35,851 nt of DNA from a virus: UHGV virus genome UHGV-0135983. One strand, 5' to 3'. Positions within the stretch are counted from its first letter, which is position 1. Each line of letters opens with the position of its first letter. The notes under the pieces are model-generated. The model made no database searches. It was not told the origin of the DNA and worked only from the letters and a program-made list of their open reading frames with translations. Below are positions 126-24,817 of this stretch, piece by piece. Position numbers and translations under genes: made by a program.

Positions 126-378
126 ATTTCACCACATCACGATAAACAGTACGGTAAATCACTTTGGCTTCAGCATTCGCCGTCGCCGCCTTCTGCTCGC
201 CTTCTGCTACCGCTTTTTCCTGTTTTGGCAGTCTGGCTTTAGCCTGGCTGTTCACTTGCTCAGAATGCGCGTACCAGCCTTTCAGATACCCCGCCCAGAA
301 AATACCAGCGGCCACCGCCAGCACTCCCCCAACGATCATCATTTTGGTTTTGCCGTTCACTCGTACAGCCCCCAGCAC
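1..378 (-). CDS. Rz: i-spanin (Rz-like)
   Basis: It has an N-terminal TM segment (MMIVGGVLAVAAGIFWAGYL) followed by a charged coiled-coil, and it directly follows the endolysin. The start is GTG at 378 or ATGATG at 342. Confidence 0.7.
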   Translation of the reverse strand: MLGAVRVNGKTKMMIVGGVLAVAAGIFWAGYLKGWYAHSEQVNSQAKARLPKQEKAVAEGEQKAATANAEAKVIYRTVYRDVVKYVNDPNRTVCKFDSDAVQLRQRAIDAANAIPGFDEPAVPAK

Positions 379-893
379 GTTAGCGCACTTTCCTGCTCCC
401 GGCGGTCAACCTGCCCGTAACAGCCGTTTTTCTGTCCTTTGGTCAGTCGGCAATCCCGTCCACCATCGAAAACCCAGCGCCGGATCTCCGCGCACGCCCC
501 TTTGCGGTCGCCGGCATTGAGTTTGCGGTAGAACGTCGAGGGGAAGCATTTACCCGGACCGATGTTGTAGGGGCAGAAGCTGGCGATCCCGACCTTCTGC
601 GGCGGCGTCAGCGGAACGTGCACATTCTTTTCAACCCATGCCAGCGCCTTATCGCGCTCGATGGCGTTAACTTTCTTGCACTGAGCCTCGGTTGCTCTTT
701 GACCCTTAATGACACGCTTGCCATCTATAACGGTTACTCCGTGGCACAACGACCACACACCGCCGGGGTCAACAACGGCCACCAGCGCGTTACCTTCTTT
801 TTCGCTGATAAACTGATCGAACAGCACCGGCGCAGATGCACCGGCGGCCAGAAGCGCCAACATTGCGGCGCTGAACTTAGCTTTGTTGCTCAT
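357..893 (-). CDS. SAR endolysin (phage 21 R-like lysozyme)
   Basis: The ATG at 893 gives [25 protein letters not shown], a Gly/Ala-rich signal-anchor-release segment. It is followed by E-x8-D-x5-S in [16 protein letters not shown], matching the E-8-D-5-T catalytic pattern. It overlaps the holin 3' end. Confidence 0.88.
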
Positions 894-1153: not shown

Positions 1154-1177
1154 GTTAACCAGGTCGGAATCCTGACT
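1144..1177 (-). promoter_or_regulatory. Late-promoter candidate e (dyad + N12 + TACCCT) upstream of the lysis cassette
   Basis: Minus strand reads AGTCAGGATTCCGACC-N12-TACCCT, ending 37 nt upstream of the holin ATG. Confidence 0.5.
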
Positions 1178-1183
1178 AAATAT

Positions 1184-3304
1184 TTAAGCGTTGAAACCAC
1201 CGACTCGAACTTTTAGCGTAGAGAGGTCAACATTAGCAGTTATGTTTAATACACCACTCCCCGCTGAAATAGAGAATAAGCGCCGTCCGCCTGACGTTCC
1301 GCCCCCCGCCGGTGGAGTGGTATCGAGTTCACCTGTGATCGATATTGAAATGGTACCCTCACGGTTAGCAACGAGTAGCTCTAAACATTCAGCCCAGGTG
1401 AATTGTGCTGACGACCATGCGTCAATAAAAATACGCTGAGTAGTTCGGTTTGGAATTGTGATGGATTTCACTTCCCCTGTATTTACCAGCCCCTGAAAAC
1501 GGGTTCCGTAATCTATCCAGCTGATACTGTACCCTGGCGACCCCGTTGTGGGATTTTGAGATGTATACCAGGTCTGAGTCCGCACTCCTGTATGACTGAT
1601 TGACTGGAGAGGTCGAGCAAACTGATCGCGGTGGATGTATGCATTCGCCCGTATACCATTACTTTGCAGATCTATATCTGCTGTTCGGGGGTTAGGATAT
1701 AAACCAGATCCCCCCACATCAAACATCGCATAATGATTTGCTACGGCGGGTATCCAGCCATTTCTGTCGAGGTTCCTGAAAAAATCTTCAAAGGCAAGCC
1801 AGTACGATTGCTGATGCCCAAACAAATTGGGGTGAACAGTCTGTATTTCCGGCGTCCGATTGAATAATGCCGTTTCGCCATATTTAGCTACAGCATCAAA
1901 CCAGTATTTTTCAACATCAATCAGCACACAGCCCATTTCTACCGCGATTTGCCTGATGGCATCGTTTCCACGCAGGAAGCGAACACCTGCCTGTATGTTT
2001 ACACCATTCCATTCAAACGTGACGTTTGACTCTGCCGCTGAAGGGATAATGTCCTCATCGGAAACAGGAAGTGGAGAAAATGATGGCCACACCTGATTAA
2101 CAGACGGCGGCATGCTCCAGCTGTACTCAGCTATATTTGGATGCGGTGTGGTTGTCAAAACAACATCACCGCCAGCCTCCCTGACTAAATTAATCGCGGC
2201 TCTAAGACGCTGCTTAAATCCATTTTCATTGAACGTTTGCCCGGCATTATAGTTTGCCGTTGGGAAATCATTCATACCATAGACAAAGAGCGCGATATCA
2301 GGATATACACCTTCTGCGACGACGCCAGACCACTGATTTACAATGAAGTTATTTATCGACGAACCATTAGCCCCCCTGTTTTCGAAAGTAAGAGGATAAA
2401 TTCCTTGTTTGTTAAGAGTTTTATTTAAGTATTCGAAAAACTTAGCGATAGGGGCTTGCGTTGCAGGATCTGGAAGTGTTGCACCCACTTGCACTGAACT
2501 ACCGAAACCGTAAGCTCTGAACAAATCCTGATAGCCGGTAACGCCATGCCGATAAGCTGTTAATTTATTAATAAACTTTGGAAACAGAGCCTGTGATGAG
2601 CCAGACGCAGCACGAATAGATGCCTCTACCGTTCTTCCTGTTTCAGTAGCAACTAAGCCAGCACCGTCCTTCGAAGCCAGCTTAATAGCCAGATCTGCAG
2701 TTTGAGTCTGTCCGGCGATCGGTACCGGGTTTCCCTGGTCATTAAATCCCAGAAGCATATTTGAACGCGGAGCCACCGGATAAAGCATGCCTACCTGATT
2801 TTCAGGAACGCGTAACGTACGGGAAAAGTTTACCTGTTCAGTTTGGATAACGTATTTTTTTGTAGCGGCGTCCTGATTATCAACAGGGTCCAGTAAATTG
2901 CTAATTCTGTATCCCTGAGCATTAAACGGCCCACCGGACAGCGGGCGAGTTATTGCCAGTCCGAGTTCGAGGAATGCCCGTTGGATAGCCATCCAGATAC
3001 GGTCAAAGTCCTTATTAATAGTATCCGCCAGTAAGTCCCCGTTATCCTGATAATCCGTTAACCGGAACGTCGGAACAACACGCTGTAACATAACGACAGC
3101 GCCATTCGCCGGCGGCGTCAGAAAGGAGATATCACCACCATCTTTATTTCCAACCCCCGCGACGGAATACCCACTGGTAACAATATTTCCGTTTATGCTT
3201 ACCTGCAGATCGCTGGCACTAATGATATAGAACTGGTACGTAAAAACGGTTGTCAGGCCGTTAGCCGTATAGATGTTATAGGGTATCTGGTTCGGTACCG
3301 ACAT
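1184..3304 (-). CDS. Tail fibre/tailspike: T7 gp17-like N-terminal adaptor plus SGNH/GDSL-type esterase domain
   Basis: The ATG at 3304 follows a GGAG SD. The N-terminus MSVPNQIPYNIYTANGLTTVFTYQF...DNQDAATKKYV is typical of podovirus fibre adaptors. SGNH-like blocks are present: GFGSS, YGMNDF and VHPN. Confidence 0.8.
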   Translation of the reverse strand: MSVPNQIPYNIYTANGLTTVFTYQFYIISASDLQVSINGNIVTSGYSVAGVGNKDGGDISFLTPPANGAVVMLQRVVPTFRLTDYQDNGDLLADTINKDFDRIWMAIQRAFLELGLAITRPLSGGPFNAQGYRISNLLDPVDNQDAATKKYVIQTEQVNFSRTLRVPENQVGMLYPVAPRSNMLLGFNDQGNPVPIAGQTQTADLAIKLASKDGAGLVATETGRTVEASIRAASGSSQALFPKFINKLTAYRHGVTGYQDLFRAYGFGSSVQVGATLPDPATQAPIAKFFEYLNKTLNKQGIYPLTFENRGANGSSINNFIVNQWSGVVAEGVYPDIALFVYGMNDFPTANYNAGQTFNENGFKQRLRAAINLVREAGGDVVLTTTPHPNIAEYSWSMPPSVNQVWPSFSPLPVSDEDIIPSAAESNVTFEWNGVNIQAGVRFLRGNDAIRQIAVEMGCVLIDVEKYWFDAVAKYGETALFNRTPEIQTVHPNLFGHQQSYWLAFEDFFRNLDRNGWIPAVANHYAMFDVGGSGLYPNPRTADIDLQSNGIRANAYIHRDQFARPLQSISHTGVRTQTWYTSQNPTTGSPGYSISWIDYGTRFQGLVNTGEVKSITIPNRTTQRIFIDAWSSAQFTWAECLELLVANREGTISISITGELDTTPPAGGGTSGGRRLFSISAGSGVLNITANVDLSTLKVRVGGFNA

Positions 3305-3321
3305 ATGGGGAACTCCGGCGG

Positions 3322-4932
3322 CTAATAATCTACGGCGACCATGTGATCGCCATCGTTTGGTTGCCAATGTTCCCGCGCCTGTGCGGTCGGAATCCCGACC
3401 AATTTACCTATACGTACCGGAGTTGAGCTGATAGCACCGGAGCCGGAGTCGATAAAGTCATCGGGCTGATTAGTCAGCGCCGGGTTAAAGTCTCGCATCT
3501 GGTCGTACATTGGGCCGTCGAGCACGTCGGTGTGCGCCCAAAGGAACCGCGACGACAGCGGCGCTTCGAAGGCATCGAGGATGCGTTTCTGTTTATTGGT
3601 CACGCTGAATTCTTCCCGGACGCCGCAACCTGTACCCTTCAACGCCTGAATCAGCAATTTGCCGGCGAAGCTGCCCGGGCCGTTCACCTCGACGCAAATC
3701 AGGGGGATCTGATACTTCAACACCAGCTCTTTAATCTGCATCACCTGACCGCCGGTGATTTTGTCGTTGTCGTCAAATTCTGCCAGTTCGCCCGTAAGCC
3801 CCTGGCAAACATGCCAGTACAGATGCCCGCGCGCGTCGGTGAAAATCAGAGAGAACGCCGAGGCGTCGGCCTTAACTTTGCCGGTGGCCACATCCCACCA
3901 GGCGACAGCACCAACAATTTGCGTCTGGCCAAGCCACATCGAACAGGAGCGGTTCGCGTATCGGATTTCAGGCTGAACGTTGTATTCTCGGATACGGTCA
4001 GGATCAAGACGAACCTCGCCAACCGGTTTACTGTGCAGCTGGTACTGACTGTCCCATTCGTTAATTGTGCGAGTCTCGCGGCGGCGCTTTGTCATTTCCT
4101 CCGGAGTGAATCTTTCCGGCCATTCACAATCGGCGTAACAGTCAACCGTGGTACCGGGAGCCTCGGCAAACTCGATACCATCATCGTTAAGACGATAATC
4201 AACACCTTCAACGAGCAGTCGCGCGCCAATGTGAATACCGACGAAAACATATTCAGGCCGGAACGGTAACGAGTAACGGCTAGCGGTAGCCTGTTTTTCC
4301 TCGATGCGAAATTCTTTGCCGAATAGTTTGATGGTCAGACAGTCGGCGCCCATAGATTCAACCTCATCGTAAAGGCTATCGTGGGTATGCGGCGTGCCGA
4401 TAAACAGCTTTCGCCCGCCGGGGACAAGAATGTGTGTCTGTTCACCCAGACGATAACGCAGCTTTTCCCGCGCCTCCGGCGTCTGGATATTCCGGGGCAC
4501 TTCTACGTCATCGTTCTGACATTCATCGGCACGGGCCGAGGTGACGTTAGAGAGGATCCCCTTTGCGTACATGCTGCCGTTACGCATATCCAGCGAGCCG
4601 TTAACCCACCATTGCTCAACGGTTCCCTGTCCGTCGGGTAGCATACCTTTGGTCAGCGGATGATTGCGTAAAACGTTCTGCGTATCGCGGCTGGTTTTGT
4701 ACGCGGTGCCGTCAGCTTCAGACTGGTGAAGAATGCGGTACTGGCGGTTCTGGTAATATCGCCATGCGTTATACACCGCCAGAATGGTGGATTTTCCGAA
4801 GCCACGGAAACAGCGAAGCACCGCGAGATCCCCGCGGTGTTCCAGCCAGTGGCAGGCTCGATAATGGCAGTCGGGAACCTCCCACCCCATCCGCTCCGCC
4901 CATATGATGAAAAAGGCGACGAATGAAATCAT
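3322..4932 (-). CDS. Terminase large subunit
   Basis: Walker A-like motif CFRGFGKST is present. Size and position (after the small subunit, with an ATGA overlap at 4929-4932) fit. The C-terminal half looks nuclease-like. Confidence 0.85.
   Translation of the reverse strand: MISFVAFFIIWAERMGWEVPDCHYRACHWLEHRGDLAVLRCFRGFGKSTILAVYNAWRYYQNRQYRILHQSEADGTAYKTSRDTQNVLRNHPLTKGMLPDGQGTVEQWWVNGSLDMRNGSMYAKGILSNVTSARADECQNDDVEVPRNIQTPEAREKLRYRLGEQTHILVPGGRKLFIGTPHTHDSLYDEVESMGADCLTIKLFGKEFRIEEKQATASRYSLPFRPEYVFVGIHIGARLLVEGVDYRLNDDGIEFAEAPGTTVDCYADCEWPERFTPEEMTKRRRETRTINEWDSQYQLHSKPVGEVRLDPDRIREYNVQPEIRYANRSCSMWLGQTQIVGAVAWWDVATGKVKADASAFSLIFTDARGHLYWHVCQGLTGELAEFDDNDKITGGQVMQIKELVLKYQIPLICVEVNGPGSFAGKLLIQALKGTGCGVREEFSVTNKQKRILDAFEAPLSSRFLWAHTDVLDGPMYDQMRDFNPALTNQPDDFIDSGSGAISSTPVRIGKLVGIPTAQAREHWQPNDGDHMVAVDY
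3367..3400 (-). promoter_or_regulatory. Late-promoter candidate d, inside the terminase 3' coding region, upstream of the tail fibre
   Basis: Minus strand reads GGTCGGGATTCCGACC-N12-GAACAT, ending 63 nt upstream of the fibre ATG. Confidence 0.45.
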
Positions 4933-5270: not shown

Positions 5271-5299
5271 AAAAAAGCCCCGTGGTTATCCATAGGGCT
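5271..5299 (-). terminator. Intrinsic terminator-like hairpin plus U6 immediately upstream of the small-terminase ATG
   Basis: Minus-strand RNA is AGCCCU (5299-5294), a 12-nt loop, GGGGCU (5281-5276), then UUUUU and AUG. The stem has 5 Watson-Crick pairs plus one G.U pair. Confidence 0.45.
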
Positions 5300-5333
5300 A
5301 TAATGTGCCGGGCTAGAGGTCGGAATCCTGACT
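5300..5333 (-). promoter_or_regulatory. Late-promoter candidate c upstream of the terminase genes
   Basis: Minus strand reads AGTCAGGATTCCGACC-N12-CATTAT, ending 30 nt upstream of the ATG at 5270. Confidence 0.5.
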
Positions 5334-5404
5334 ATTGCATATGCAGCGATGTACGTATAAAACTAGCCGACATTAATATAATCATTTTCATTCAGAGGCT
5401 CCCT

Positions 5405-5842
5405 GTGAAAACTTTATTCCCCTTAATACTGTTTATCGTAACTTCTACCGTTTGCGCCAAAGAAGTTAAATATGACTTTCCTCCAGATGGGGAAATGGCA
5501 AAATCACTCAAACCAGAAATTGTTGGCGTGGCTAATTATGAAATGGTCAATAGAAGCGTGCGCTTAAAAGCTTTAGATGTTGGTGAAAAAAATGTTTCTC
5601 TCCTGGTAGTCATAGGTGCTACCGACACCAGAAAACCCGTTACTCAAGCTAACATCCCTGACAAACAATCAATCTCATTAACTAAACAGCAAATTGTGAA
5701 CAAATATTGTGCACCATTCGGGTATGGCAATTGGTACTTTGATGCCTTCAAACAGCGGGGTGTAAAACTGCACTATTACTTTTACTCGGCAGTAGACACC
5801 CCGTTATTTACATTCACGGTAAATAAATCTGATTGCGATTAA
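5405..5842 (+). CDS. Secreted (periplasmic) moron protein of unknown function
   Basis: GTG at 5405 lies 6 nt after GAGG. The signal peptide is VKTLFPLILFIVTSTVCA|KE, and there are two Cys in the mature part. The gene is AT-rich, opposite in orientation to all neighbours, and its stop overlaps the convergent gene. A possible promoter is TTGCAT (5335) with TATAAA (5356). Confidence 0.6.
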   Translation: MKTLFPLILFIVTSTVCAKEVKYDFPPDGEMAKSLKPEIVGVANYEMVNRSVRLKALDVGEKNVSLLVVIGATDTRKPVTQANIPDKQSISLTKQQIVNKYCAPFGYGNWYFDAFKQRGVKLHYYFYSAVDTPLFTFTVNKSDCD

Positions 5843-8733
5843 CGCATACCGGGATCGACCTGGTTAATCAGCGGCGCAATCCAGAACAGATTATTACCGG
5901 GTAACAGCGTACGCACGTTATGCAGCACACGGTCGCCGGCGTCGCCATTCAGCACGCCGGCGGTTACATCTGTAACGGTATCCAGCAGGCCAAAGGTTGG
6001 CCCCAGAGCAGAACCGATAAAGCCGCGGCTGGCGTAACGGGACTGCGTACCGGTGCCGAGCAATGGCCCTAGCCCTACCATCCCGCCGGATGCCTTTTCA
6101 GCCATGTTGTTATATTCCATCAGTGGACCGAGGATACCAGAACGGTCGATGCCCTCGAGAACCATCTTCTGCGGGGTCAAATCAACTTCCCGGCCATTAG
6201 CCGCCTGCTTAAGCGCATAGGTCAAAGAGCCCAGGCCAATCTGGAAGGCGGTGCCGTAATAGAACTGCGCGGTACCTTCCTGCAGGCCGCCGAGCGTTGC
6301 GCGATTATAGGATGCCGTAGCAAAAGACTTAAACTGGAATACGGTTTTCCCCAGCGGGGTACTAGCCCACAGCGGCGTATCACCGATCCCCGGCGTGATA
6401 ACTGTATTGTTTACGTCTTTCAGTACCGCGGATTGCAGCAAACCGGCGGCGTACTGGTCATCCCATTTTTCGAAATTGCCGATATGCCAACCCTGAATAA
6501 CTTCGCCGTGCTTCTGAAATTCTCGCTGGATGCGTTCGGCCATCTTCTCATTGATGCCGAGTTTTGCCAGGCGCTTCGCAGGGAACGCGCCGGACAGAAT
6601 ACCGTCGGACGTGATCATGCCATTCACCGATTTGTTCATATCGTCAAAGTGGCCCATCATGGTCAACTTGCCGAACACATCGGTAATACGTTCCATGCCA
6701 GCTTCTGCAGCTGTCGTACGTGAAGAGCTATCGACCAGATCCCCCATCGTACGCGCGCGGGTATGCAGTATGGTTTCAAGTCCAACGGCCATTTTCTTCT
6801 GATCCGCCCGGCTGGCGAGGTAAGCCGGCGAGCGGGTAATCAGTGCGCCATATCCACGCATGGTATTGCTGAAGCCGTTAACCATCATGCCGCGCGCCAG
6901 ATCCGGGATAGCGGATACCGTCATGCCACCGAGTTTTGTTACAAAGTTGGCGCTACGCAGGAAAGCACCGGCGCGGACGAAAAATGATGATGGGTCATCC
7001 GGCATACCGTAGGTACCAACGAGGCGATCGCGGAGCGCCAGAATATCGCGCAGGTCGGCTTCGCGCGCCTTCGCCAGCTTTTCCTGTTCTGCCGGGCGTA
7101 AACGCATCAGCGCGTCGTATTCGTCCTGGATGGCGGCGAGCTGCGAATCCAGCGACTTATTGCCAAAGGTGCGGGTTAATTCGATTTCTGCTGAGGCTTC
7201 ACGAATATGACGCTGCAGGACGTAGTTAGCATCGCTCTCCAGATAATCTTTCATCAGGCGATCGGGAACGCTCAACGTACGCGATTTTGTGCTACCCGGC
7301 GCTTTCACCATAAAGACGTTGGCGAACTCCTGCGGAATTTTGGCCCCGACAATACGGTTGATAGTGGTATCTGCGGCAATTTCGGCATCTTCGCGGGACA
7401 TGGTTTTTTCACCGCGTGACCACCAGTCAACCAGCATGTTGCGGAATTTATCGCGCTCGCTAACGATTTTCCCTACCTTGTACACGCGTGGGAAATAGCT
7501 GGTCTGTCCCATCGCTTTCAGTTCGGCATCCGGCGGAAGTAAACCCAGTTCCTGCTGTGCCGTCTTCACACGATTGATGACCGTACGCATTGCCTGTGCC
7601 GCTTCCTGCACTTTCGCATTAACGTGCACGTCACCGTTGCGCAGCGCCTCGCCAACCTGTTCACGGAAGGCCGTATAACCCAGATCGCCGCCTTCGGCTT
7701 TGTACTGGGTGTATGCCTGCTTATTCGCAGTAACGACGGCCGCCTCTTCACGGCGCCAGCCACGTACGCGCGTCTCAGCTGCAACCGGCGTTTCAATACC
7801 GCGCAGGTTGCCTTCCAGCGTGAAGTTATTCTCTGCAAGTTCCAGCGCTGTCCGGCGCGCTTCTTTTGATGGGGATTCCATCAGGCGGGTGATCGGCGTC
7901 AGATAGCTACCGGCTTTTTTAGCCAGCTTGCCTAGTGGGCCGCCAGACACCGGTGTGAGATCATCCAGCGTAGCTTCGCGGATACGCATGGCGCCGACGC
8001 TGCCACCATTCGGTAAAGTATCCGCCAGGGCATCAGCTGCGTTGTTAATCGTTGGCGAGGCGTTCATATTATCGAGCGCCTCCGCCACTTCACGGGTGGC
8101 CGCATTTCTTACCGACGGGGTGATCATCGCGCCAGCAGTGGCAAATACACCGCTGAGAAGTGCGCCGGCAGTAATGTGTGCGGCGCTCTCCCTGGCTGTT
8201 CTGGTGTACTGCTCGTTATTGAGCGCAACCTCGCTAAGTGCGGTACCGGCAGCGCCAATAGCAACCTGAGAACCAATACGCGCAGCCAAGCTTCCCTGCG
8301 CACCAGGAATAAACATCGATGCGACCGTGACAGGGTCGATAATTCCGGCGGCGATACTAGCCAAAGTTCCTTCAGCGCCTGTTTCAGACAGCACCCGGCG
8401 GTCTTCGTTTTCATCGTCTATCTGGTTTTTAATCCAGGCGGTTTCCTCTGGGGATTTTGAATCCGCAAAGGCGGATCCCCATTGTTCGTACCCCTTTAGT
8501 TCGTTTTTATCAGAATAAGGGTTATAACCGTCCGCCGGTTCGAATTGTTTAGCCGGGCGGAACATTCCGGCCAGCAGGTTATTCTGACGAAAAGCGGCAT
8601 CCCATACAGACGGTTGCTGTTGCAGCGGTTCCGGGTTAGTTCCTTTAGGCAGAGATACATCAAAACCAGTTGGCTCCTGAAGAGCATTATCCATTACGCT
8701 TAGCGGTTCGTCAGATTGTGGGTAGAAAGGCAT
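5839..8733 (-). CDS. Large internal virion/ejection protein (T7 gp15/gp16-class)
   Basis: The protein is 964 aa, Ala/Gly-rich, coupled (TAATG) to the preceding SLT protein, and lies last in the internal-protein block. Confidence 0.6.
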   Translation of the reverse strand: MPFYPQSDEPLSVMDNALQEPTGFDVSLPKGTNPEPLQQQPSVWDAAFRQNNLLAGMFRPAKQFEPADGYNPYSDKNELKGYEQWGSAFADSKSPEETAWIKNQIDDENEDRRVLSETGAEGTLASIAAGIIDPVTVASMFIPGAQGSLAARIGSQVAIGAAGTALSEVALNNEQYTRTARESAAHITAGALLSGVFATAGAMITPSVRNAATREVAEALDNMNASPTINNAADALADTLPNGGSVGAMRIREATLDDLTPVSGGPLGKLAKKAGSYLTPITRLMESPSKEARRTALELAENNFTLEGNLRGIETPVAAETRVRGWRREEAAVVTANKQAYTQYKAEGGDLGYTAFREQVGEALRNGDVHVNAKVQEAAQAMRTVINRVKTAQQELGLLPPDAELKAMGQTSYFPRVYKVGKIVSERDKFRNMLVDWWSRGEKTMSREDAEIAADTTINRIVGAKIPQEFANVFMVKAPGSTKSRTLSVPDRLMKDYLESDANYVLQRHIREASAEIELTRTFGNKSLDSQLAAIQDEYDALMRLRPAEQEKLAKAREADLRDILALRDRLVGTYGMPDDPSSFFVRAGAFLRSANFVTKLGGMTVSAIPDLARGMMVNGFSNTMRGYGALITRSPAYLASRADQKKMAVGLETILHTRARTMGDLVDSSSRTTAAEAGMERITDVFGKLTMMGHFDDMNKSVNGMITSDGILSGAFPAKRLAKLGINEKMAERIQREFQKHGEVIQGWHIGNFEKWDDQYAAGLLQSAVLKDVNNTVITPGIGDTPLWASTPLGKTVFQFKSFATASYNRATLGGLQEGTAQFYYGTAFQIGLGSLTYALKQAANGREVDLTPQKMVLEGIDRSGILGPLMEYNNMAEKASGGMVGLGPLLGTGTQSRYASRGFIGSALGPTFGLLDTVTDVTAGVLNGDAGDRVLHNVRTLLPGNNLFWIAPLINQVDPGMR

Positions 8734-11943: not shown

Positions 11944-12396
11944 TTAAACCTCCATCGAATAAAGCAGGCCTGTTTGCTGCAGGCCGAGACGCGAATACAA
12001 CTGGCCGGTGCGTTCTGCGTGCACCCCAGTGGTGATCCCCATGTTGATAACGGCGGCGCCGTGCTCTTTTGACCAGTCGATAAAGGCGCGTGCCAGTCGC
12101 GGCCCGGCGCTGCCGCCTCGATGTTCTGGCGCGACAAATAAGCCGTATTCAAAAGCCATCAACTGGCGGGAGAAAAATTGCTCTGCGATACCGCCGCCAA
12201 GCCAGCCGATCACATGCCCGTCTTTTTCAGCGACCAGCACACAACCAGACGGCGAATAAATCAGGCTCTGCGCCAGTTCTGCACATTTATCCGCGTCAAA
12301 CGGCGAATTTAGCGAGTAACGGGACTCGAGATACATCCGGGTCCCCAACTCGATAAGCGCCGGGATATCCCCGGCTGTGGCGTTACGAATCATCAT
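11944..12396 (-). CDS. GNAT family N-acetyltransferase embedded in the virion module
   Basis: The start is ATGATG at 12396, with a TAATG overlap onto the upstream gene. A motif-A-like segment HRGGSAGPRLARAF is present. The GNAT fold pattern is VLVAEKDGHVIGWLGG...FVAPEHRG. Confidence 0.75.
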   Translation of the reverse strand: MMIRNATAGDIPALIELGTRMYLESRYSLNSPFDADKCAELAQSLIYSPSGCVLVAEKDGHVIGWLGGGIAEQFFSRQLMAFEYGLFVAPEHRGGSAGPRLARAFIDWSKEHGAAVINMGITTGVHAERTGQLYSRLGLQQTGLLYSMEV

Positions 12397-14384
12397 TAGC
12401 CCCCGTTGCTGGTAAATACGATGACAATGGCGAGAAGATGAAATGGCAGCGGCTGGCGCTGCTGAATAGTCAGCGTGTCTTCTCCGCGCTCCCAGCCAAG
12501 TTTTCCCCAGTAGTGATCGCCGGTGAACAACGGCGCCGGCTGGTTGAGGATTTTTGGCCCGAACGTGCGGAACGGGATCACCTGGCCGTTGCACTCTGCG
12601 CCAGTGGTTTCGAGGAAACGCATAGTGACTTCACTTGTGCGCTTACGGGTGTTCTGCGTGGTGCCTTCAGACGTGGCGACTTCAGGTGTCAGCGTGGTAA
12701 TGGTTGTTTCAAAGTGCAGGCCGATTTCGACTTTGTAGGCTTTGCGCGATAGCGTGATTTGGCCGGATGAAACGACCGCCTGCGGCATCACTGAGCCATC
12801 AGCGACAATATCGACGGTCTCGCCTTCGAGGTGCGACAGTCCGCCCCATGTCGTTGCGCCAGTATCACTGGAGCCCGTCACGGCTGCATCGGTGTACAGG
12901 GCGTTACTGAACATTTCGACATAGCGAACGGTCTGGCCGTTGACCGTACGGCGCACAATGGCGTACACCACATCGTCAGTCGCTGAGGGAATAGTCGCTA
13001 CGGACTCAAACGCACCACTGGTGATCTGTCGTGACCACGCGACAACGTTCTGCACCCGGTCGATAGCCATTGTCACCATTACGCCATCATTGCGAACCAG
13101 CCAGGTAAACGCATCAGGTTGCTGCTGATACGCCATATCGATCACACCGCCTTCTGTGATGTGTTCCGCCAGTACAGTCATATCGTTGGCCGAGTAAGCT
13201 ACATAGCTGTCGGGGTCATAGGCGACAGCGTAGAGCTTACGGCCAGAACGCTGGACGAACATAATTTCGGTACCGACGCGCACCGGCCGGATCCCGTTGC
13301 ATCCGTACGGGCTGGGATTTTTTACCGAAATATTGGTAGGCGTAATCGCCGCATCATTGCCGGCGGTGATGGTGAACTCGCCGCCGTACGTCAGCGCAAT
13401 TAGCGTATTCATCTGCGCGAGGTGAACAATCGGGTTAAGCTGGTCAGAAGAGAGCGTAAAGCTGATCGCGTCGTCGTCATCGGTTCCCAGCTCGAAAGAG
13501 AGGTATACGCCCGATTCGCTCCACCAGATAGTTTGCGGATACTGCGGCGAACCAGCCAGAACCAACCGCTGCTGGTAAAGCGTTACCGCACCCGGGTATC
13601 CAAATTCATCCGTCCAGACAGAATCCTCGCGAGTCCAGGCGCCCGGCGATGCTGCCTGCGTTGCGCTTAAATCGGTGCGAATGGTACCGACAGCAACCTG
13701 TGCACTGGTTACGCTCTTGATCAGCACCAGACCGCTGTTAATCCTTACGTACGAGCCCACATCTTCAGGCACCCAGCCATCACCGGTGAGCGTTCCGTCT
13801 CCGCTTTCTGGCGGTTCATCATCGCTCAGTGTCAGCGTGATTTCCGAGCCGACGAATTCTTTCACTGATGGCTTGCACCACTTTTGCGGTGTGTCGCGTA
13901 CTTCGTCGAAGGGTTCAACGATAAACGGCGCCGGTTCCAGAACCCAATCGGTTTGCCCGCGTCGCTGCAGGCGATACGGTTTAACGGCCTGATGCACCAG
14001 AAACATGGTATCGGCGCCCTGAACGTAATTTACCGATGGCAGCATGTCAGAGGTGTACGGGCTGGCGATTTCATACGGCGTGTTATCGTCGTTCACCAGC
14101 TGCTTACCGTCCTGGTAAATTCGCAGATAGCCGTCGCCAAATTCCAGAATGTACGCCTGCGTGCGGTTAAAAACGTACGGAATGAGGCGGGATTTTTTAT
14201 CACCGTACTTTGTGGCCGCTACATACTGCGAACCGGGACGACGCATTACCCCGCCCTGTACCACGACCACGCTATTTTCCAGCGTCTTCGCGCCGTTCGC
14301 ATAGCGATCGATATCCACGCGCCCCATAAGACGTGGGGAAATTTCGCCGGCGGTGAAGTTGGTTTTAATCAGACTGGCGCGCAT
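12396..14384 (-). CDS. Tail tubular protein B (T7 gp12-class)
   Basis: The ATG at 14384 gives MRASLIKTNFTAGEISPRLMGRVD. The protein is about 660 aa and sits directly after the tubular protein A-like gene. Confidence 0.65.
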   Translation of the reverse strand: MRASLIKTNFTAGEISPRLMGRVDIDRYANGAKTLENSVVVVQGGVMRRPGSQYVAATKYGDKKSRLIPYVFNRTQAYILEFGDGYLRIYQDGKQLVNDDNTPYEIASPYTSDMLPSVNYVQGADTMFLVHQAVKPYRLQRRGQTDWVLEPAPFIVEPFDEVRDTPQKWCKPSVKEFVGSEITLTLSDDEPPESGDGTLTGDGWVPEDVGSYVRINSGLVLIKSVTSAQVAVGTIRTDLSATQAASPGAWTREDSVWTDEFGYPGAVTLYQQRLVLAGSPQYPQTIWWSESGVYLSFELGTDDDDAISFTLSSDQLNPIVHLAQMNTLIALTYGGEFTITAGNDAAITPTNISVKNPSPYGCNGIRPVRVGTEIMFVQRSGRKLYAVAYDPDSYVAYSANDMTVLAEHITEGGVIDMAYQQQPDAFTWLVRNDGVMVTMAIDRVQNVVAWSRQITSGAFESVATIPSATDDVVYAIVRRTVNGQTVRYVEMFSNALYTDAAVTGSSDTGATTWGGLSHLEGETVDIVADGSVMPQAVVSSGQITLSRKAYKVEIGLHFETTITTLTPEVATSEGTTQNTRKRTSEVTMRFLETTGAECNGQVIPFRTFGPKILNQPAPLFTGDHYWGKLGWERGEDTLTIQQRQPLPFHLLAIVIVFTSNGG

Positions 14385-15008: not shown

Positions 15009-15920
15009 TTATGCTACGAAATCGATGGCGACTACTTTGTTTTCCGCTGCGCGGCCTGCACCATAGGACGCATCGACGGAAATCTGAATGGTGTTGTTTT
15101 TATCGCGGCGCGGGCCGATATCGACGTTGTACTCTTCGCCGGTACCAAAATGCACAGCAGATTTACACCAGGCTGCGGCGGTTTTGGTGGTTACAGCGGG
15201 ATCACCTGCTGAAGCAGAATCCAGTTTTTCATACGCCAGCCACTTAAAGCCCAGCCAGTTACCAGACACTGCGCCTTCCTGCAGCATTTTCACTGCCATA
15301 AAGTCGGCGCTGGTCAGCGTGGTATCGCTGAGGATTTGGGTCAGCATGTCGGCGTTGTAGGTGATATACAGCTCTTCACCGTTCTGCTCGTCACACTCGT
15401 TACGGCGGAACATGGCTTTCGCGGCGATCAGCTTCGCTTTGGTCATCCCTGTACCGCCAGCAACGATTTTCTGCGATGCAGGCAAGGCAACTGGAGCGTA
15501 CGCGCCAGTATTGGAGGTTTTACGCAGAACGGTATCGAGCAGCGCGCGATAAATAACATCGTCTTTTTTGCGGTTGGATGCGGCCAGCGTCAGCTGCAAA
15601 TATGGCCCCTGCGGGTCAGCCAGCAGTTTGCGCAGGTCGCGCTTTTCCACTGGCACGAATACGCCATAGTCAGCCATCAGCGCATTACGGGTGCCGGCAT
15701 CAGGCAGATCCCAGACGGTATCACCGAAACGCTCGGTGATCTGGGTCATTTCGATGGTACCCATATCGTTGATGGTGAACGACGCACCGGTAATATTGCC
15801 ACGGTCGTAAACAGCAGCTTGCAGGCGGGAATCCTTCTGCTGTGCGGCAATTTCGAAAGAATCATGGAACTGCTGAACAAACGCAGCGGTGATCATGTTC
15901 TTAGCGGTATCAAATGACAT
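15009..15920 (-). CDS. Major capsid protein
   Basis: The ATG at 15920 follows a GGAG SD and gives MSFDTAKNMITAAF... The protein is 303 aa and lies between the scaffold and tail tubular genes. The longer ORF-track start at 16001 was rejected. Confidence 0.8.
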   Translation of the reverse strand: MSFDTAKNMITAAFVQQFHDSFEIAAQQKDSRLQAAVYDRGNITGASFTINDMGTIEMTQITERFGDTVWDLPDAGTRNALMADYGVFVPVEKRDLRKLLADPQGPYLQLTLAASNRKKDDVIYRALLDTVLRKTSNTGAYAPVALPASQKIVAGGTGMTKAKLIAAKAMFRRNECDEQNGEELYITYNADMLTQILSDTTLTSADFMAVKMLQEGAVSGNWLGFKWLAYEKLDSASAGDPAVTTKTAAAWCKSAVHFGTGEEYNVDIGPRRDKNNTIQISVDASYGAGRAAENKVVAIDFVA

Positions 15921-16056
15921 AACAATCACTCCAGAAAGTATCGCCTGCGGGGTATCGGTTTCCCGGCCCAAATCAGCACAATGCGGTTGGCGCTGGCGCA
16001 TTGCGGGAAAATCAGGTATCCGGCGTCCCCGCCGGGCTGGTTGTGGAGTGATTGTT
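15921..16056 (-). promoter_or_regulatory. Long-range 13-bp perfect anti-SD/SD pairing flanking the capsid 5' leader
   Basis: 16056-16044 (AACAAUCACUCCA) is the exact complement of 15933-15921 (UGGAGUGAUUGUU). The latter contains the capsid SD and abuts the AUG. Confidence 0.5.
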
Positions 16057-16084
16057 AGCGAGGAGAGCGGTCGGAATCCCGACC
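16051..16084 (-). promoter_or_regulatory. Late-promoter candidate b upstream of the capsid gene
   Basis: Minus strand reads GGTCGGGATTCCGACC-N12-AACAAT. Confidence 0.5.
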
Positions 16085-16109
16085 AAATGAGCGAAAGTAA
16101 GCCGTGCTG

Positions 16110-16994
16110 TTACCCTCTGGGTTCTTTTATCCTATAACCTGTGCCAGGCATGAATTCATCAATAACTCTTGCCGCGTGACCTATAACTCGAAACGCTGAG
16201 CGTGCTTCTTCATCGGTAATTTTAGTCGCTTTAGTCGGGTCATAATCAGGAGTTTGGTCATCGTCAAAATGTACTCGATAGCCAAATTTTGATATTTCTC
16301 TGAAAATGGAACTAACTGACCTATCAATAGTTGCCATAGTGTCCATTAATCTATTTTTATCCTCCTCAATTTTATTTTTTATTTTCTCATAAGGGCCTAG
16401 CTCATCTACTAAATCTTTAAGAGCATCCGACTTAGAATTTATTTCACCTTCAATTTCATTAAGTTTCCCTTCCGCCAACTCAAGCTTCGAACTTAAAATA
16501 TTAAATTGTTCTTCAGCTTCTTCATATGACTTCTTAATGCTCTCGATATCATGTGTAACTTTAGTAACCTTGAGTTCTTCTTCTGCATTCCTTTTTGCAA
16601 ACAGAGATGTTTGATAAGCTAGTGCGCTATCTGCTTTAGCTGTGTATTCAGCAATGATTTCACGAGCCTCACTCTCAGATTTTGCCCTTTTGATATCGTT
16701 ACCATCAGCGATTTTTTGCGCGCATCTTTGAAAAAAACTCACAGCATGACTAGCATAAGGAAAAAGAACGGCAATAATAAAACCCAAAAGGATAGGAGCA
16801 ACTACAGAATACCAAAAAATACATGGTTCACTTTTCACTTTAATGATTCTATCTTGTAGTTCTCCACTACCCATTAAAACTATCAATAAACTATCCCAGT
16901 TAAACCCCAGCCATGAGAGGACTATGAACCCGAAAAGAGGAGTGTTTATTCTTTGAATTAAAGTTTTCTTTACCGCATCAGCTAATTCGTCCAT
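16110..16994 (-). CDS. AT-rich moron: membrane-anchored coiled-coil protein of unknown function
   Basis: The protein is 294 aa with two predicted TM helices (res ~18-42 and ~57-80). A ~120-aa heptad-like charged region and a C-terminal globular part follow. The gene has its own promoter-like ATGACT-17-TTAAAT and an AAGGG SD. Confidence 0.7.
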   Translation of the reverse strand: MDELADAVKKTLIQRINTPLFGFIVLSWLGFNWDSLLIVLMGSGELQDRIIKVKSEPCIFWYSVVAPILLGFIIAVLFPYASHAVSFFQRCAQKIADGNDIKRAKSESEAREIIAEYTAKADSALAYQTSLFAKRNAEEELKVTKVTHDIESIKKSYEEAEEQFNILSSKLELAEGKLNEIEGEINSKSDALKDLVDELGPYEKIKNKIEEDKNRLMDTMATIDRSVSSIFREISKFGYRVHFDDDQTPDYDPTKATKITDEEARSAFRVIGHAARVIDEFMPGTGYRIKEPRG

Positions 16995-17066
16995 ACGCTT
17001 ACCCTTATGAAGAAACTATCGAAGGATATTTAAGAGTAAAAGGCAAGAAAAGTCATTAACTTTAAA

Positions 17067-17095
17067 TAGAAAAAGCCAGCGAAGTTATACTGGCC
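17067..17095 (-). terminator. Intrinsic terminator after the scaffold gene, upstream of the moron
   Basis: Minus strand reads GCCAG, a 10-nt loop, CTGGC, then TTTTTCTATTT. Confidence 0.55.
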
Positions 17096-17115
17096 TTTGA
17101 TATTACCGTGGCGTG

Positions 17116-17964
17116 TCACACTACGGTTTGCTCGCCGTAACGCTTCTGGTAGTACGCTTTAACCTGTGCAGATACGCGTTCATGGTCGGTATGCTTCGGA
17201 TTCATGTACGCTTCGGACTTCATCAGGTCGCGGATTGATTGCTGCTCTGCCGGGTTGCTGTCTGCGCCCGCTGGCGCGTCTTCCTGCATTTCCGCACCGA
17301 TTTTCGCCAGCATGCGGATCACCATCGGGTTATTGCCGATTTCATCAATGCGGCCGCGATCACCTTCATCGGTCAGGGAATTGAACGCGCGGAAAGCCAG
17401 ACCGATATTCTTGTTAAATTCCGCGTCAGTCTTCCAGACTTCGCGCAGCTGCGTGGTGGCCGCCTCCGAATCCAGCGCCGCGGCGCCGTTGACCAGTTCA
17501 GGCGCAATCTGCGCGTATTCGCTGATAATAAATCCCATCTGATCGTTAGTGATGCCCTTGGCGTGCGCCGACTTCATGAATGATTGCATGCGGGGATCGG
17601 CCTTGAACTCGTCCCAGTTGAAGCCCTCGGCCTTCACCTCAGGTGCATAATCATCTGCCGTTTTCGGCGGCGCGTCGCCGCTGCCCATGCGCTTTTCAAG
17701 GTGCGAGTAAGCATGCGCCAGTTTGCGGGCAGAGCCTTCAATGTCGAGTTTTCCACCTTCGCCCATAACGCGGTATTTTTCAGGTATCCAGTCATTCGCG
17801 CCCGGTTCGCCCGCTCCGGTGCTGAGAAGTGTATTGCCAGCAGAATTATCAGCGCCCTGATTTTCAGTACCACCGCCATTGCCACCATCATTACCCCCTG
17901 TGCTGCCTGCTGGCGCTTCGGCGCCCTGCTCGGCGTTCATGAATAAGTGTTTAATCTTCCACAT
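17116..17964 (-). CDS. Scaffolding protein
   Basis: The protein is 282 aa, acidic and low-complexity (a GGNDGGNGGG tract). It lies between the portal and capsid genes. Confidence 0.65.
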   Translation of the reverse strand: MWKIKHLFMNAEQGAEAPAGSTGGNDGGNGGGTENQGADNSAGNTLLSTGAGEPGANDWIPEKYRVMGEGGKLDIEGSARKLAHAYSHLEKRMGSGDAPPKTADDYAPEVKAEGFNWDEFKADPRMQSFMKSAHAKGITNDQMGFIISEYAQIAPELVNGAAALDSEAATTQLREVWKTDAEFNKNIGLAFRAFNSLTDEGDRGRIDEIGNNPMVIRMLAKIGAEMQEDAPAGADSNPAEQQSIRDLMKSEAYMNPKHTDHERVSAQVKAYYQKRYGEQTVV

Positions 17965-22686: not shown

Positions 22687-23520
22687 TCATGCTGCACGCT
22701 CCTGTTTCTGTTGTGCTGCAGGGTTAAGCCAGAGGCATTCAGTACGGACTTTCGTACCGCGCCCGGCACTGATGCGCGATGCTTTCTCGGTCTTCGCCCA
22801 GCCGGATAGCATGTCGTTGTAGACATCAGTGTCGTAACCGCTAATCATCACCATGCCTTTCATCGTTCTGGACACAGCGAGCAATTGCTCATGCCCTTCA
22901 ACGGTCATTTCATGGTTGTAATAACGATTTTTCTGCACTCGTGTTTCCGGCATATATGGCGGATCGATGTAATGCAGCGTCGTTTCTGCGTCGTGGGCGC
23001 GCATTACCGCCAGAGCGTCTTTGTTCTCGATGATGACTCCTTGAAGGCGCTGACAGACAACAGCGAGATTAGCCGGGTAACGCTCCCATAGATGCGCCGC
23101 CGTAGCGTATTTGCGTTTGCTGTCGCTGCGGAAGCCGGATTGACCGCCGATACCTGCGGCAGAGCCGAACCCCATACAGGCACGAACCACCATGCGGCGG
23201 GCGCGTTCGATAGGGTCAGTGGCTGGTTGCTGAGCGTGACAGAACTCATCGCGTGAATACGGGGTCAGGCAACAGGCATCCTGCAGGCGCTGGTTTAATT
23301 CAGGGTCGCGCAATACACGAAACAGGTTCACCACCTCGCCGTCGAGATCGTTGTACACCTCTGAATAGCTACGCGCTTTTTGTAGCAATACGCCAGCAGC
23401 CCCGCCGAACGGTTCGACATAGCAGACGTGTTCCGGCATCTGCTCGATAATCCAGTGTGCCAGTCGGAATTTCCCGCCGTGATATCTGATTACAGGATGC
23501 CTGATTTTTTTTTCAATCAT
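22687..23520 (-). CDS. dam: Dam-type (D12 class) N6-adenine DNA methyltransferase
   Basis: Motifs are EPFGGAAGV (SAM binding) and IDPPY. The protein is 277 aa. Confidence 0.85.
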   Translation of the reverse strand: MIEKKIRHPVIRYHGGKFRLAHWIIEQMPEHVCYVEPFGGAAGVLLQKARSYSEVYNDLDGEVVNLFRVLRDPELNQRLQDACCLTPYSRDEFCHAQQPATDPIERARRMVVRACMGFGSAAGIGGQSGFRSDSKRKYATAAHLWERYPANLAVVCQRLQGVIIENKDALAVMRAHDAETTLHYIDPPYMPETRVQKNRYYNHEMTVEGHEQLLAVSRTMKGMVMISGYDTDVYNDMLSGWAKTEKASRISAGRGTKVRTECLWLNPAAQQKQERAA

Positions 23521-23699
23521 TGATCATCACCCCATTCGTCATAAAAAAAATCATCAACTCGCTTATATGCCTCGTAAGCGGCTTCAATCTCCATTTCTGT
23601 GATATCGAATGATTTACCATTTAATTCGACGATTAATTCCAGCGCGTCGCCCCAATCTTCGAGCGACGCGGTTCTTTTGGTTGCGCTAAAATCTGCCAT
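23517..23699 (-). CDS. Small acidic hypothetical protein
   Basis: The protein is 60 aa and is coupled on both sides. Confidence 0.45.
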   Translation of the reverse strand: MADFSATKRTASLEDWGDALELIVELNGKSFDITEMEIEAAYEAYKRVDDFFYDEWGDDQ

Positions 23700-24290
23700 C
23701 TATGCTACCTCCCCGATATATTCTGCAATGCCCGGCAGCAGCGCCACCGCTGGCGATTCACACTGGTTGCCCCACACGTCGAAACCATGCGACGACTGGC
23801 GGGCGAATAACTCAATACGCGGTACATCGCCCAGCAGCTGCACCAGCTTTTCGCGCACGATATCCGGTTTGCGCGAATGCTCCAGACGCGGGGCCGTGAA
23901 TGACTGAACGATCCCGGCATCCAGCCGGGCGGGTAATTTCCCCTGCACAGCGAAAAGGCAATCTTCACTGTTCGCCCTGGTCATATGGCCCATTCCTATG
24001 GCCAGTTTGTCGGTCTGCCGGCTGTAGCATTTGTTCCACGTAAAGCCTTTCATGGTCATCAGGCGGAAGCCCCACGCCTCGACTACTCGCAACGCCTCCA
24101 GCGGCTGAGTCGGTACCCACCACATAGCCAGCAGGCAGTTTTCAGCGGCCAGTTCCCAGACCGGAAGACGGCAGATATCGAGCACAGTCATGGTCTGGTA
24201 TTTATGCCCGACGCCACGCTCGCCATCTTTGGCTTTATCGCGGTACGTCCAGGGCGGATCGCAATAAATTAAAGTGTATTTTTCATTCAT
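23700..24290 (-). CDS. MT-A70 family N6-adenine methyltransferase
   Basis: IYCDPPWTY carries the DPPW motif. The protein is 196 aa. Confidence 0.8.
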   Translation of the reverse strand: MNEKYTLIYCDPPWTYRDKAKDGERGVGHKYQTMTVLDICRLPVWELAAENCLLAMWWVPTQPLEALRVVEAWGFRLMTMKGFTWNKCYSRQTDKLAIGMGHMTRANSEDCLFAVQGKLPARLDAGIVQSFTAPRLEHSRKPDIVREKLVQLLGDVPRIELFARQSSHGFDVWGNQCESPAVALLPGIAEYIGEVA

Positions 24291-24817
24291 TATTTCGAAT
24301 CCTTAATAATATTGGCAACACGATTAAATGATTCATACGTTTCAATGTTTCTTGAGAAATTAAGGAGCCTTGTCTTACCAGATGGATAAACCCGACCTGA
24401 ATAAGTCTTGTTCTGCGTTCTAAATTCAATTGTTTGTTTTATAGAACCAATATTTTTATCACTAACAATCTCACTAGCAGCCATAAAACCCACTTTTTCC
24501 TCTTCAATTACAACGAACGCGTAAAAGTCACAGGAACCATAATTAGTTGCTCTGCAAGTTCCTTTCCCTGTTCTGGTGCTGAACCGAAAAACATTCTTCG
24601 ACTTTCCATAGTCGCGCATACACAAGGTTGTTCTGACTTGCCCTCTTAATAAATACTCGCCAGATTGAACAACTATATCGTATGGCAATCCTTGGTCTGA
24701 GGGGAAACATATAAAACCCTGCTTACTGAGTTTAAATATGGCGTAATACTCACCACATTTGCCAAGTTCTAACTCGCTCGAAAAATCGCTTATGTTTATA
24801 TCAATAGTCCCATTCAC
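24290..24817 (-). CDS. PD-(D/E)XK nuclease-fold protein (PDDEXK_5-like), AT-rich
   Basis: The pattern is GKCGEYYAIFKLSKQGF...PYDIVV...LRGQVRT...CDFYAFVV, i.e. E ... D ... Q-V-[K>R]. Its stop overlaps the MT-A70 ATG (TAATG). Confidence 0.6.
   Translation of the reverse strand: MNGTIDINISDFSSELELGKCGEYYAIFKLSKQGFICFPSDQGLPYDIVVQSGEYLLRGQVRTTLCMRDYGKSKNVFRFSTRTGKGTCRATNYGSCDFYAFVVIEEEKVGFMAASEIVSDKNIGSIKQTIEFRTQNKTYSGRVYPSGKTRLLNFSRNIETYESFNRVANIIKDSK

Follow-up and report, generated by a model that had tools for sequence, protein, structure and literature searches.

The viral genome UHGV-0135983, whose 35,851 nucleotides are referred to in full as the window, belongs to a temperate podophage whose head and tail (morphogenesis) genes are of the T7 type, and we analyze here a single open reading frame (ORF) that interrupts its head genes. 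Our principal finding is that this ORF, which codes for a protein of 294 amino acids (aa) on the minus strand, is the cargo of a cassette inserted between the scaffold and the capsid genes. In other words, the cassette is a moron, and its gene is cargo in an accessory-gene hotspot, a conclusion that is strongly supported by comparison with relatives of the phage. The encoded protein, judged by its sequence signature, belongs to a family of membrane coiled-coil proteins, large and uncurated, that is carried by mobile elements. As for its role, our best guess, to which we would assign a probability of roughly 0.4, is that it is expressed in the lysogen and acts in phage exclusion or abortive infection. 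The protein family is uncharacterized; a prophage moron encoding a membrane protein, as such, is a well-known kind of object. The locus is composed of the following features.

16110-16994, minus strand: the cargo ORF, with an ATG start (coordinates include the stop codon), encoding a domain with two transmembrane (TM) helices, a coiled-coil stalk and a small C-terminal tip.
16091-17070, minus strand: the inserted cassette of approximately 980 bp, made up of promoter, Shine-Dalgarno (SD) sequence, ORF and a 19-nucleotide (nt) tail, as delimited by alignment with gene-less E. coli prophages and by comparison of slots.
17116-17964: a scaffold-like gene (phrog_3742), upstream of the cargo ORF on the coding strand.
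17071-17098, minus strand: an intrinsic terminator after the scaffold gene, found in a consensus scan, upstream of the cargo promoter.
15921-16090, minus strand: a conserved structured leader of the capsid gene, approximately 170 nt long, which starts with the repeated motif CATTTGGTCGGGATTCCGACC, ends with a helix between anti-SD and SD sequences and forms the downstream border of the slot.
15009-15920: the major capsid gene (PF19821), downstream of the cargo ORF.

A moron, in the sense of Hendrix and colleagues, is an extra transcription unit within a phage operon. In the window, the extra gene lies between two genes that are adjacent in related phages such as TPWB-05, and it is absent from two E. 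coli prophages (L001 and L002), from a Trabulsiella prophage and from phage YeP5. In particular, the two E. coli prophages, which are 92% and 80% identical in nucleotide sequence across the neighboring 10 kb, do not have the cargo gene, and in a three-way alignment homology ends at position 16090 and returns at approximately 17107, just past the scaffold stop codon. What is more, the cassette fits exactly between the T-run of the scaffold terminator and the motif at the head of the capsid leader. The empty slot, as seen in E. coli STEC383 and in a Trabulsiella prophage, measures approximately 55 bp and consists of the scaffold terminator followed directly by the conserved motif TCATTTGGTCGGGATTCCGACC. 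Only 213 bp separate scaffold and capsid in the isolated Yersinia phage YeP5 (capsid 84% identical), where no homolog of the cargo gene is found, and the two genes abut in Acinetobacter phage TPWB-05, from which the cargo gene is likewise absent.

Other relatives hold different cargo in the same slot. Namely, the slot of a Raoultella lignicola prophage (L026, approximately 2134-2403, minus strand) contains an 89-aa ORF that matches the Acb2/Tad1 hairpin domain (PF24729) with 62.7 bits against a cutoff of 27 (E = 3.6e-17). We regard this ORF as a candidate sponge for CBASS or Thoeris signals; its place is ahead of the terminator, so that it would be co-transcribed with the late genes. Proteins of the N4-gp49/Sf6-gp66 family (PF13876) are encoded in the slots of Pluralibacter and Enterobacter prophages (L025, approximately 7290-7736, plus strand, and L029, approximately 164-556, minus strand), and an 83-aa ORF without a family lies on the opposite strand in the slot of E. 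coli 23GD11002 (L001, approximately 7113-7364, plus strand). A megablast search of the region against the phage collection gave no match. Since relatives, YeP5 and TPWB-05 among them, either do not have the gene or have other cargo in its place, the cargo gene is dispensable for virion formation and its slot is an accessory-gene hotspot.

The composition of the cargo gene is also unlike that of its surroundings. The ORF has 36.8% G+C and 27.1% G+C at third codon positions, compared to 53.7-60.9% and 60-72.5%, respectively, in the capsid, scaffold, portal and tail tubular B genes, and the kilobase that holds it is the most AT-rich of the window. The same contrast is seen in five orthologous loci, every ortholog having 33-38.5% G+C against 48-60% in its flanks. 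An earlier note on this DNA, made from its letters alone, had placed a 294-aa ORF at these coordinates between scaffold and capsid genes and had put its G+C content at about one-third, against more than half in the flanks; the ORF call, the families of the neighboring genes and the measured values agree with it on both counts.

All full-length orthologs that we found occupy the same slot. They include those of K. pneumoniae (87% identical) and of three metagenomic contigs (53%, 49% and 42% identical by BLASTP), and further orthologs are present in an IMG/VR viral contig (L018) and in Serratia (34% by BLASTP, 31% in global alignment). The K. pneumoniae ortholog occupies positions 1724061-1724945 of CP153163.1. 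A narrow-alignment search for related loci returned none in genome contigs and one in viral contigs. In the comparison with the Klebsiella locus, the cargo protein is 86.7% identical and the flanking proteins are 97.7-100% identical, and the ratio of nonsynonymous to synonymous substitution rates (dN/dS) is 0.27 for the cargo gene, 0.06 for the capsid gene and 0.02 for the portal gene. Segments of the cargo gene taken separately give dN/dS values between 0.19 and 0.57, with dS reaching 0.44-0.54 in the 3' half. Substitution patterns of this kind indicate that the cargo gene is under purifying selection with relaxed constraint, and that its 3' half has probably undergone mosaic exchange. We also considered positive selection in situ as the cause of the fast divergence and rejected it, as dN/dS does not exceed 0.57 anywhere and the high dS at the 3' end resembles mosaic exchange. 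In L018 (approximately 5977-6875), the ortholog is split into a 138-aa ORF corresponding to the N-terminal domain and a 157-aa ORF corresponding to the coiled coil, which could reflect a frameshift, a pseudogene or a sequencing error.

If the cassette is to serve as a transcription unit, two signals ahead of its ORF are relevant.

17028-17056, minus strand: candidate sigma-70 promoter of the cargo gene, ATGACT-17-TTAAAT, picked out by comparative conservation.
17002-17006, minus strand: SD-like AAGGG, 7 nt ahead of the cargo ATG, read from the sequence; orthologs have a GGAG-type SD at the equivalent place.

The -35 element TGAC, the 17-nt spacing and the -10 element TTAAAT are kept in six to seven of seven orthologous loci (the -10 variants being TTTAAT in Serratia and TTAATT in L018), and the neighboring sequence is not conserved. 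As the proteins encoded at these seven loci are only 31-87% identical, conservation of the element amid such diverged sequence provides comparative support for a working promoter. The stem of the scaffold terminator is invariant in the seven loci, and a homologous terminator is present in empty-slot relatives, too. It had been suggested that a terminator brackets the gene; the terminator exists (17098-17071), only it lies upstream, where it ends the scaffold transcript, and not on the far side of the ORF. Downstream of the cargo ORF, no terminator was found in the window or in the Klebsiella locus, and the Serratia ortholog does have one. Consequently, transcripts starting at the cargo promoter should run into the capsid leader. 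Taken with the absence of the gene from close relatives, the alternative cargo, the foreign composition and the purifying selection, the conserved promoter-like element of its own strongly supports the initial description of the gene as a moron.

The protein itself falls into three parts.

16695-16994, minus strand: conserved N-terminal domain, aa 1-100, with the signature R15, P19, G22, W28, N32, W33, I50, P67, P79, holding TM1 and TM2.
16290-16739, minus strand: long helix/coiled-coil stalk, aa 86-235, continuous with TM2 in the AlphaFold2 (AF2) model.
16113-16289, minus strand: variable C-terminal tip, aa 236-294, predicted to form a beta-hairpin and one helix, conserved in the closest orthologs only.

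Hydropathy gives two hydrophobic segments, TM1 at aa 20-42 and TM2 at aa 57-85, and the hydrophobicity of aa 90-235 has a period of 3.5 residues, with a power of 90 compared to 10.7 +/- 10.2 in shuffled sequences (maximum 62; all 500 exceeded). The two N-terminal TM helices and the heptad stretch that had been read from the translation are in this way confirmed, the stalk being approximately 150 aa long instead of the 120 given at first. In the AF2 model, which was calculated with 126 family sequences (mean predicted local distance difference test score, pLDDT, 88; predicted template modeling score, pTM, 0.42) and replaces an earlier and poor one from 8 sequences (pLDDT 68), an N-terminal helix (aa 2-16) precedes a first membrane helix (aa 19-31 and 33-41) that is kinked at the invariant N32-W33. 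Next comes a short helix in the loop (aa 46-54), which leads to a single helix from aa 59 to 235, i.e. to TM2 running into a stalk of approximately 150 residues, which may be broken by Gly200-Pro201. The tip is modeled as a beta-hairpin followed by a last helix (aa 261-281), with pLDDT of 58-79 at aa 241-290 and below 50 at aa 287-294. What had been called a distinct C-terminal domain is, in other words, there as a predicted fold, and it is a small, variable tip of lower confidence. Finally, the segment ahead of TM1 has a family-wide net charge of +0.5, the loop one of -0.4 and the segment that follows TM2 one of +1.4, a bias that would fit a topology with both termini in the cytoplasm (N-in/C-in).

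How large is the family to which this protein belongs? A profile search of 1.84 billion cluster representatives yielded 1434 proteins at E<=1e-3 and 254 at E<=1e-10. The 126 members that were aligned are 191-482 aa long (median 285), the conserved domain being N-terminal in the listed members; R15, P19, G22, W28, N32, W33, P67 and P79 are nearly invariant in it, and the C-terminal part is variable. The cargo protein has the same build, namely the signature N-terminal domain of approximately 100 aa and then a helical stalk. It is also a direct sequence member of four PHROGs, all labeled as of unknown function: phrog_4780, with a match at E = 1.2e-15 over aa 1-212, and phrog_13369, phrog_35327 and phrog_22645, with matches from 9e-11 to 2e-3. 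As these clusters are uncharacterized, the matches provide a family and no function. Set against Pfam, the 126 members showed no convincing domain beyond isolated, probably spurious matches of single members. A sequence-profile search of the PDB with the N-terminal domain found no relative, fold searches returned generic long helices only, a word-indexed profile search with the N-terminal domain produced just 3 proteins, and a literature search found no paper on the family. The earlier note had recognized no family, which holds for Pfam, NCBIfam, the PDB and fold comparison and does not hold for the PHROGs or for the large uncurated family just described. It had also reported no enzymatic motif, and indeed no added enzymatic domain turned up in the protein or in its 126 relatives in scans of Pfam, NCBIfam and PADLOC.

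The distribution of the family is that of an accessory gene. Namely, distant members that bear the signature are single genes at accessory positions of unrelated mobile elements. In Uetakevirus phages the homologs lie on the strand opposite terminase and portal, in two lambdoid Klebsiella prophages on the strand opposite the replication and nin genes, and in a Vibrio inovirus within an accessory region. Homologs are carried by 65 plasmid records, mostly of large Klebsiella plasmids; on IncF plasmids they adjoin RelBE and HigBA, and on a Pantoea plasmid the homolog is found near ardA, umuDC and a methyltransferase, on the strand opposite ardA. In chromosomes, homologs were seen in islets adjoining lysS-prfB-recJ, at the edge of a prophage and adjacent to an orphan CdiA-CT/CdiI pair. 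No recurring partner gene was seen beside the homologs in any context examined.

We believe that protection of the lysogen, or of the element, is the most likely role of the cargo protein for the following reasons. First, the gene has a candidate sigma-70-type promoter of its own, placed after a terminator. Second, relatives of the gene lie antisense to lytic operons in other temperate phages, and the family is common to phages and plasmids. Third, a variable part is attached to a module that stays constant. Fourth, hotspots in prophages are known as major reservoirs of defense genes (PMC9519451, PMC9122126). A role in exclusion or abortive infection is, moreover, consistent with how the family is distributed, i.e. 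with accessory positions in temperate phages, often antisense, and with plasmids, where it is found beside toxin-antitoxin modules. According to this proposal, the protein would be made in the lysogen from its own promoter and anchored in the inner membrane, its two termini facing the cytoplasm; it would oligomerize via its stalk and shield the lysogen from incoming phages. Specificity or sensing would fall to the variable stalk and tip, and action on the membrane to the conserved two-TM domain. With no enzymatic domain in its family, the protein would have to act by binding and blocking at the membrane or by permeabilizing it; that is, it may either block genome entry at the inner membrane or abort infection by membrane permeabilization. 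Since most of the protein is predicted to lie in the cytoplasm and none of the family members has an enzymatic domain, we lean slightly toward an abortive mechanism that would act on the membrane over a block of entry.

That said, a number of points weigh against a role in exclusion or abortive infection. Scans of the protein and of its 126 relatives with Pfam, NCBIfam and PADLOC gave coiled-coil-type noise only. In particular, a check against PADLOC, which had been proposed at the outset, was run with PADLOC-DB v2.0 and found no significant component match outside the coiled coil, the hits being LmuB-, JetC- and ZorA-like and the best of them having E = 1.3e-4. The slot of a relative holds a gene of the counter-defense type (the Acb2/Tad1-like one), which leaves room for other accessory roles. 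The cargo gene has the same orientation as the late operon and no terminator downstream, and it could be transcribed late as well, with read-through into the capsid gene. The autonomy claimed for it stands as far as the promoter motif is present and conserved in seven loci; the motif is weak, matching the consensus at 8 of 12 positions only, and the consensus scan made no call there. The pTM of the AF2 model is 0.42 despite a locally confident monomer, and both the topology and the oligomeric state via the stalk are ones that we infer. Finally, profile comparisons (hhalign) with known exclusion proteins were negative: the probability was 2% for P22 SieA, whose architecture differs too, and 0.3% each for lambda SieB and lambda RexB; SieB (PF14163) gave no Pfam match at E<=0.1, and no context provides the partner gene that RexB would call for.

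It is instructive to compare the cargo gene with these and other known systems. P22 SieA is, like the cargo gene, a single gene within the late region of a temperate podophage; its own promoter is annotated, where the cargo gene has a candidate one. To our knowledge, SieA genes have not been reported on plasmids. Like the cargo protein, SieA comes in highly diverged sequence types, and it is located in the inner membrane, the location predicted for the cargo protein. It is 162-164 aa long, is predicted to have three TM helices, lacks a coiled coil and has its own promoter in the late region (PMC10883804). Lambda SieB and RexB are membrane proteins which the prophage expresses and which cause exclusion or abortive infection, as proposed here for the cargo protein; RexB needs RexA, whereas the cargo gene stands alone. 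HK97 gp15 is said, with reference to work by Cumby and colleagues from 2012, to be a small inner-membrane protein that is encoded by a moron, made in the lysogen and able to block genome entry. By this description, both are morons in a late structural operon, gp15 being much smaller, without a stalk and in the tail operon. A fainter likeness links the cargo protein to the ZorA protein of Zorya, which also combines a membrane part with a long cytoplasmic helical (coiled-coil) tail; the match is a weak coiled-coil one (E = 0.006, aa 135-235), and the cargo has neither a MotA-like domain nor the partners ZorB, ZorC and ZorD. Equally faint is the likeness to SNIPE, a single gene whose elongated, mostly cytoplasmic product has an inner-membrane anchor and variable regions thought to set specificity. 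SNIPE is a membrane-anchored DUF4041/GIY-YIG nuclease that cuts phage DNA during injection (PMC13190303). It has one TM helix, DUF4041 and a nuclease domain, unlike the cargo family with its lack of convincing Pfam domains. In sum, the cargo protein is not a member of the SieA, HK97 gp15, SNIPE or ZorA families, gp15 being set apart by its description.

Would the same observations fit a different function? One alternative, which we regard as unlikely and would not dismiss lightly, is that the gene is an accessory of lytic growth that benefits the phage, such as a counter-defense protein, a factor excluding others during infection or a modulator of the envelope or of lysis timing, and that it is transcribed with or alongside the late genes. 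Its orientation and the missing downstream terminator, which lets transcripts enter the capsid leader, would suit such a function, as would the Acb2/Tad1-like and gp49/66 cargos of the Raoultella, Pluralibacter and Enterobacter slots, all of which would be co-transcribed with late genes, and the one plasmid homolog that is found near ardA and a methyltransferase. However, unlike these other cargos, the gene of the window follows a terminator and has its own conserved candidate sigma-70 promoter, and the Pantoea homolog is on the strand opposite ardA. What is more, the lambdoid and Uetakevirus homologs run antisense to lytic operons, and others lie on non-phage plasmids beside toxin-antitoxin modules or in chromosomal islets.

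A second alternative, to which we give a similarly small chance, is that the protein serves host fitness or maintenance of the element and has no relation to phages, for instance in tolerance of envelope stress, in lysogenic conversion, as an addiction-type toxin or by interfering with conjugative entry. Carriage by plasmids, prophages and an inovirus alike, the proximity to RelBE and HigBA on IncF plasmids and the absence of a match to any defense family are all in its favor. However, the contexts examined contain no conserved antitoxin-like partner gene, and a fast-diverging C-terminal half attached to a conserved module is more reminiscent of the specificity-driven proteins of arms races than of fitness factors of the housekeeping type.

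It is highly improbable, in our opinion, that the cassette is horizontally acquired DNA, silenced or in decay, that has no function at present. DNA of such extreme AT-richness is typically silenced by H-NS in enterobacteria, and one ortholog, that of L018, is split into two ORFs; however, the ORF is intact in at least 6 diverged orthologous loci, the promoter is conserved, dN/dS is 0.27 and the N-terminal residues are nearly invariant. Least credible of all is a virion or assembly protein of this phage group, e.g. a membrane-associated assembly factor or a decoration protein, which the position between scaffold and capsid genes and a weak coiled-coil similarity to tape-measure-like profiles might suggest, and which we reject because virion-forming relatives do without the gene (it is absent from close prophage relatives, YeP5 and TPWB-05), homologs occur on plasmids and in an inovirus, and two hydrophobic helices and a foreign composition speak against it. 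The earlier note had named homology to a virion or assembly protein of lytic relatives as grounds for abandoning its proposal; it was looked for among structural PHROG and Pfam families, with nothing found beyond coiled-coil noise.

The downstream border of the slot deserves comment in its own right. The capsid leader is kept in all relatives, phage YeP5 included, with or without cargo. Of the 36 pairs in its consensus structure, 6 have compensatory changes; pairing is seen in 96.5% of cells, compared to 26-42% when the partners are slid, and 21 cells are changed on both sides, compared to 8.3 +/- 2.2 in shuffles, none of 500 reaching the observed value. In the terminal helix, TCACTCC (the anti-SD) pairs with the capsid SD, GGAGTGA. 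An Rfam scan of the region that includes the leader gave no match. The leader may serve to control the capsid gene at the level of translation or processing. It begins, moreover, with a 21-nt hairpin motif, (C)ATTTGGTCGGGATTCCGACC, of which the window has three copies with up to 3 mismatches, none being expected by chance.

16069-16089, minus strand: copy at the head of the capsid leader.
3385-3405, minus strand: copy just upstream of the tail-fiber gene.
1162-1182, minus strand: copy just after the tail-fiber gene, ahead of the lysis region.

We regard the repeated hairpin as a candidate regulatory or processing element of the late region. As it recurs on the late-gene strand, the late promoter that had been proposed at 16051-16084 overlaps a real repeated element of the late region, at the head of a structured leader; its identity as a promoter was not borne out. 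The tail-fiber gene between two of the copies (1184-3367, minus strand) joins a T7-type N-terminal adaptor to a GDSL lipase/esterase domain, a combination suggestive of a deacetylating fiber that modifies the receptor.

Of the remaining genes of the window, several are relevant to the nature of the host element.

34832-35851: integrase, running off the end of the window.

The integrase, a CI-like repressor and related genes are the reason for assigning a temperate lifestyle to the element. Other genes of the window encode the CI-like helix-turn-helix protein just mentioned, a DnaB helicase, two DNA methyltransferases, a T7-type terminase and a lysozyme. Around the slot, the scaffold-like gene is preceded by a Bbp19-like gene and a T7-type portal gene (PF12236), and tail tubular proteins A and B are also encoded downstream of the cargo ORF. 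A GNAT acetyltransferase gene (11944-12594, minus strand) lies among the genes for the tail tube and the internal virion proteins, at the same position in all relatives examined. In the early region (22687-24817, minus strand), genes for a D12 Dam-like and an MT-A70 DNA methyltransferase adjoin a PD-(D/E)XK-like ORF. Finally, a 186-aa ORF (5282-5842, plus strand) lies on the strand opposite that of the late operon, with the terminase region to one side and the genes for internal virion proteins to the other; its local G+C content is approximately 45-49%, it has no Pfam or PHROG match, and it may be a second moron.

What do these results mean for the family as a whole? If its members do not act on phages, the cargo gene is an ordinary moron of unknown function. 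A bolder proposal, which we put forward tentatively and hold to be rather less likely than a protective role of the cargo protein itself, is that of a widespread and hitherto unrecognized single-gene defense family, found in temperate phages, filamentous phages and plasmids, with the cargo gene as its founding example. Here, a long coiled-coil cytoplasmic "antenna" would fire or position the two-helix membrane module, the variable tip would recognize a component of the incoming phage, and the slot between scaffold and capsid would be a hotspot of defense and counter-defense comparable to those of P2 and P4. If the family does exclude phages or abort their infection, it would represent a very simple defense module, devoid of any enzymatic domain and missed by current defense-finding tools. 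Such a module would already be spread across hundreds of sequence clusters in phages and plasmids of Enterobacterales, among them clinical plasmids of Klebsiella, and the junction of scaffold and capsid genes in this group of prophages would be a place in which to mine genes for defense and counter-defense.

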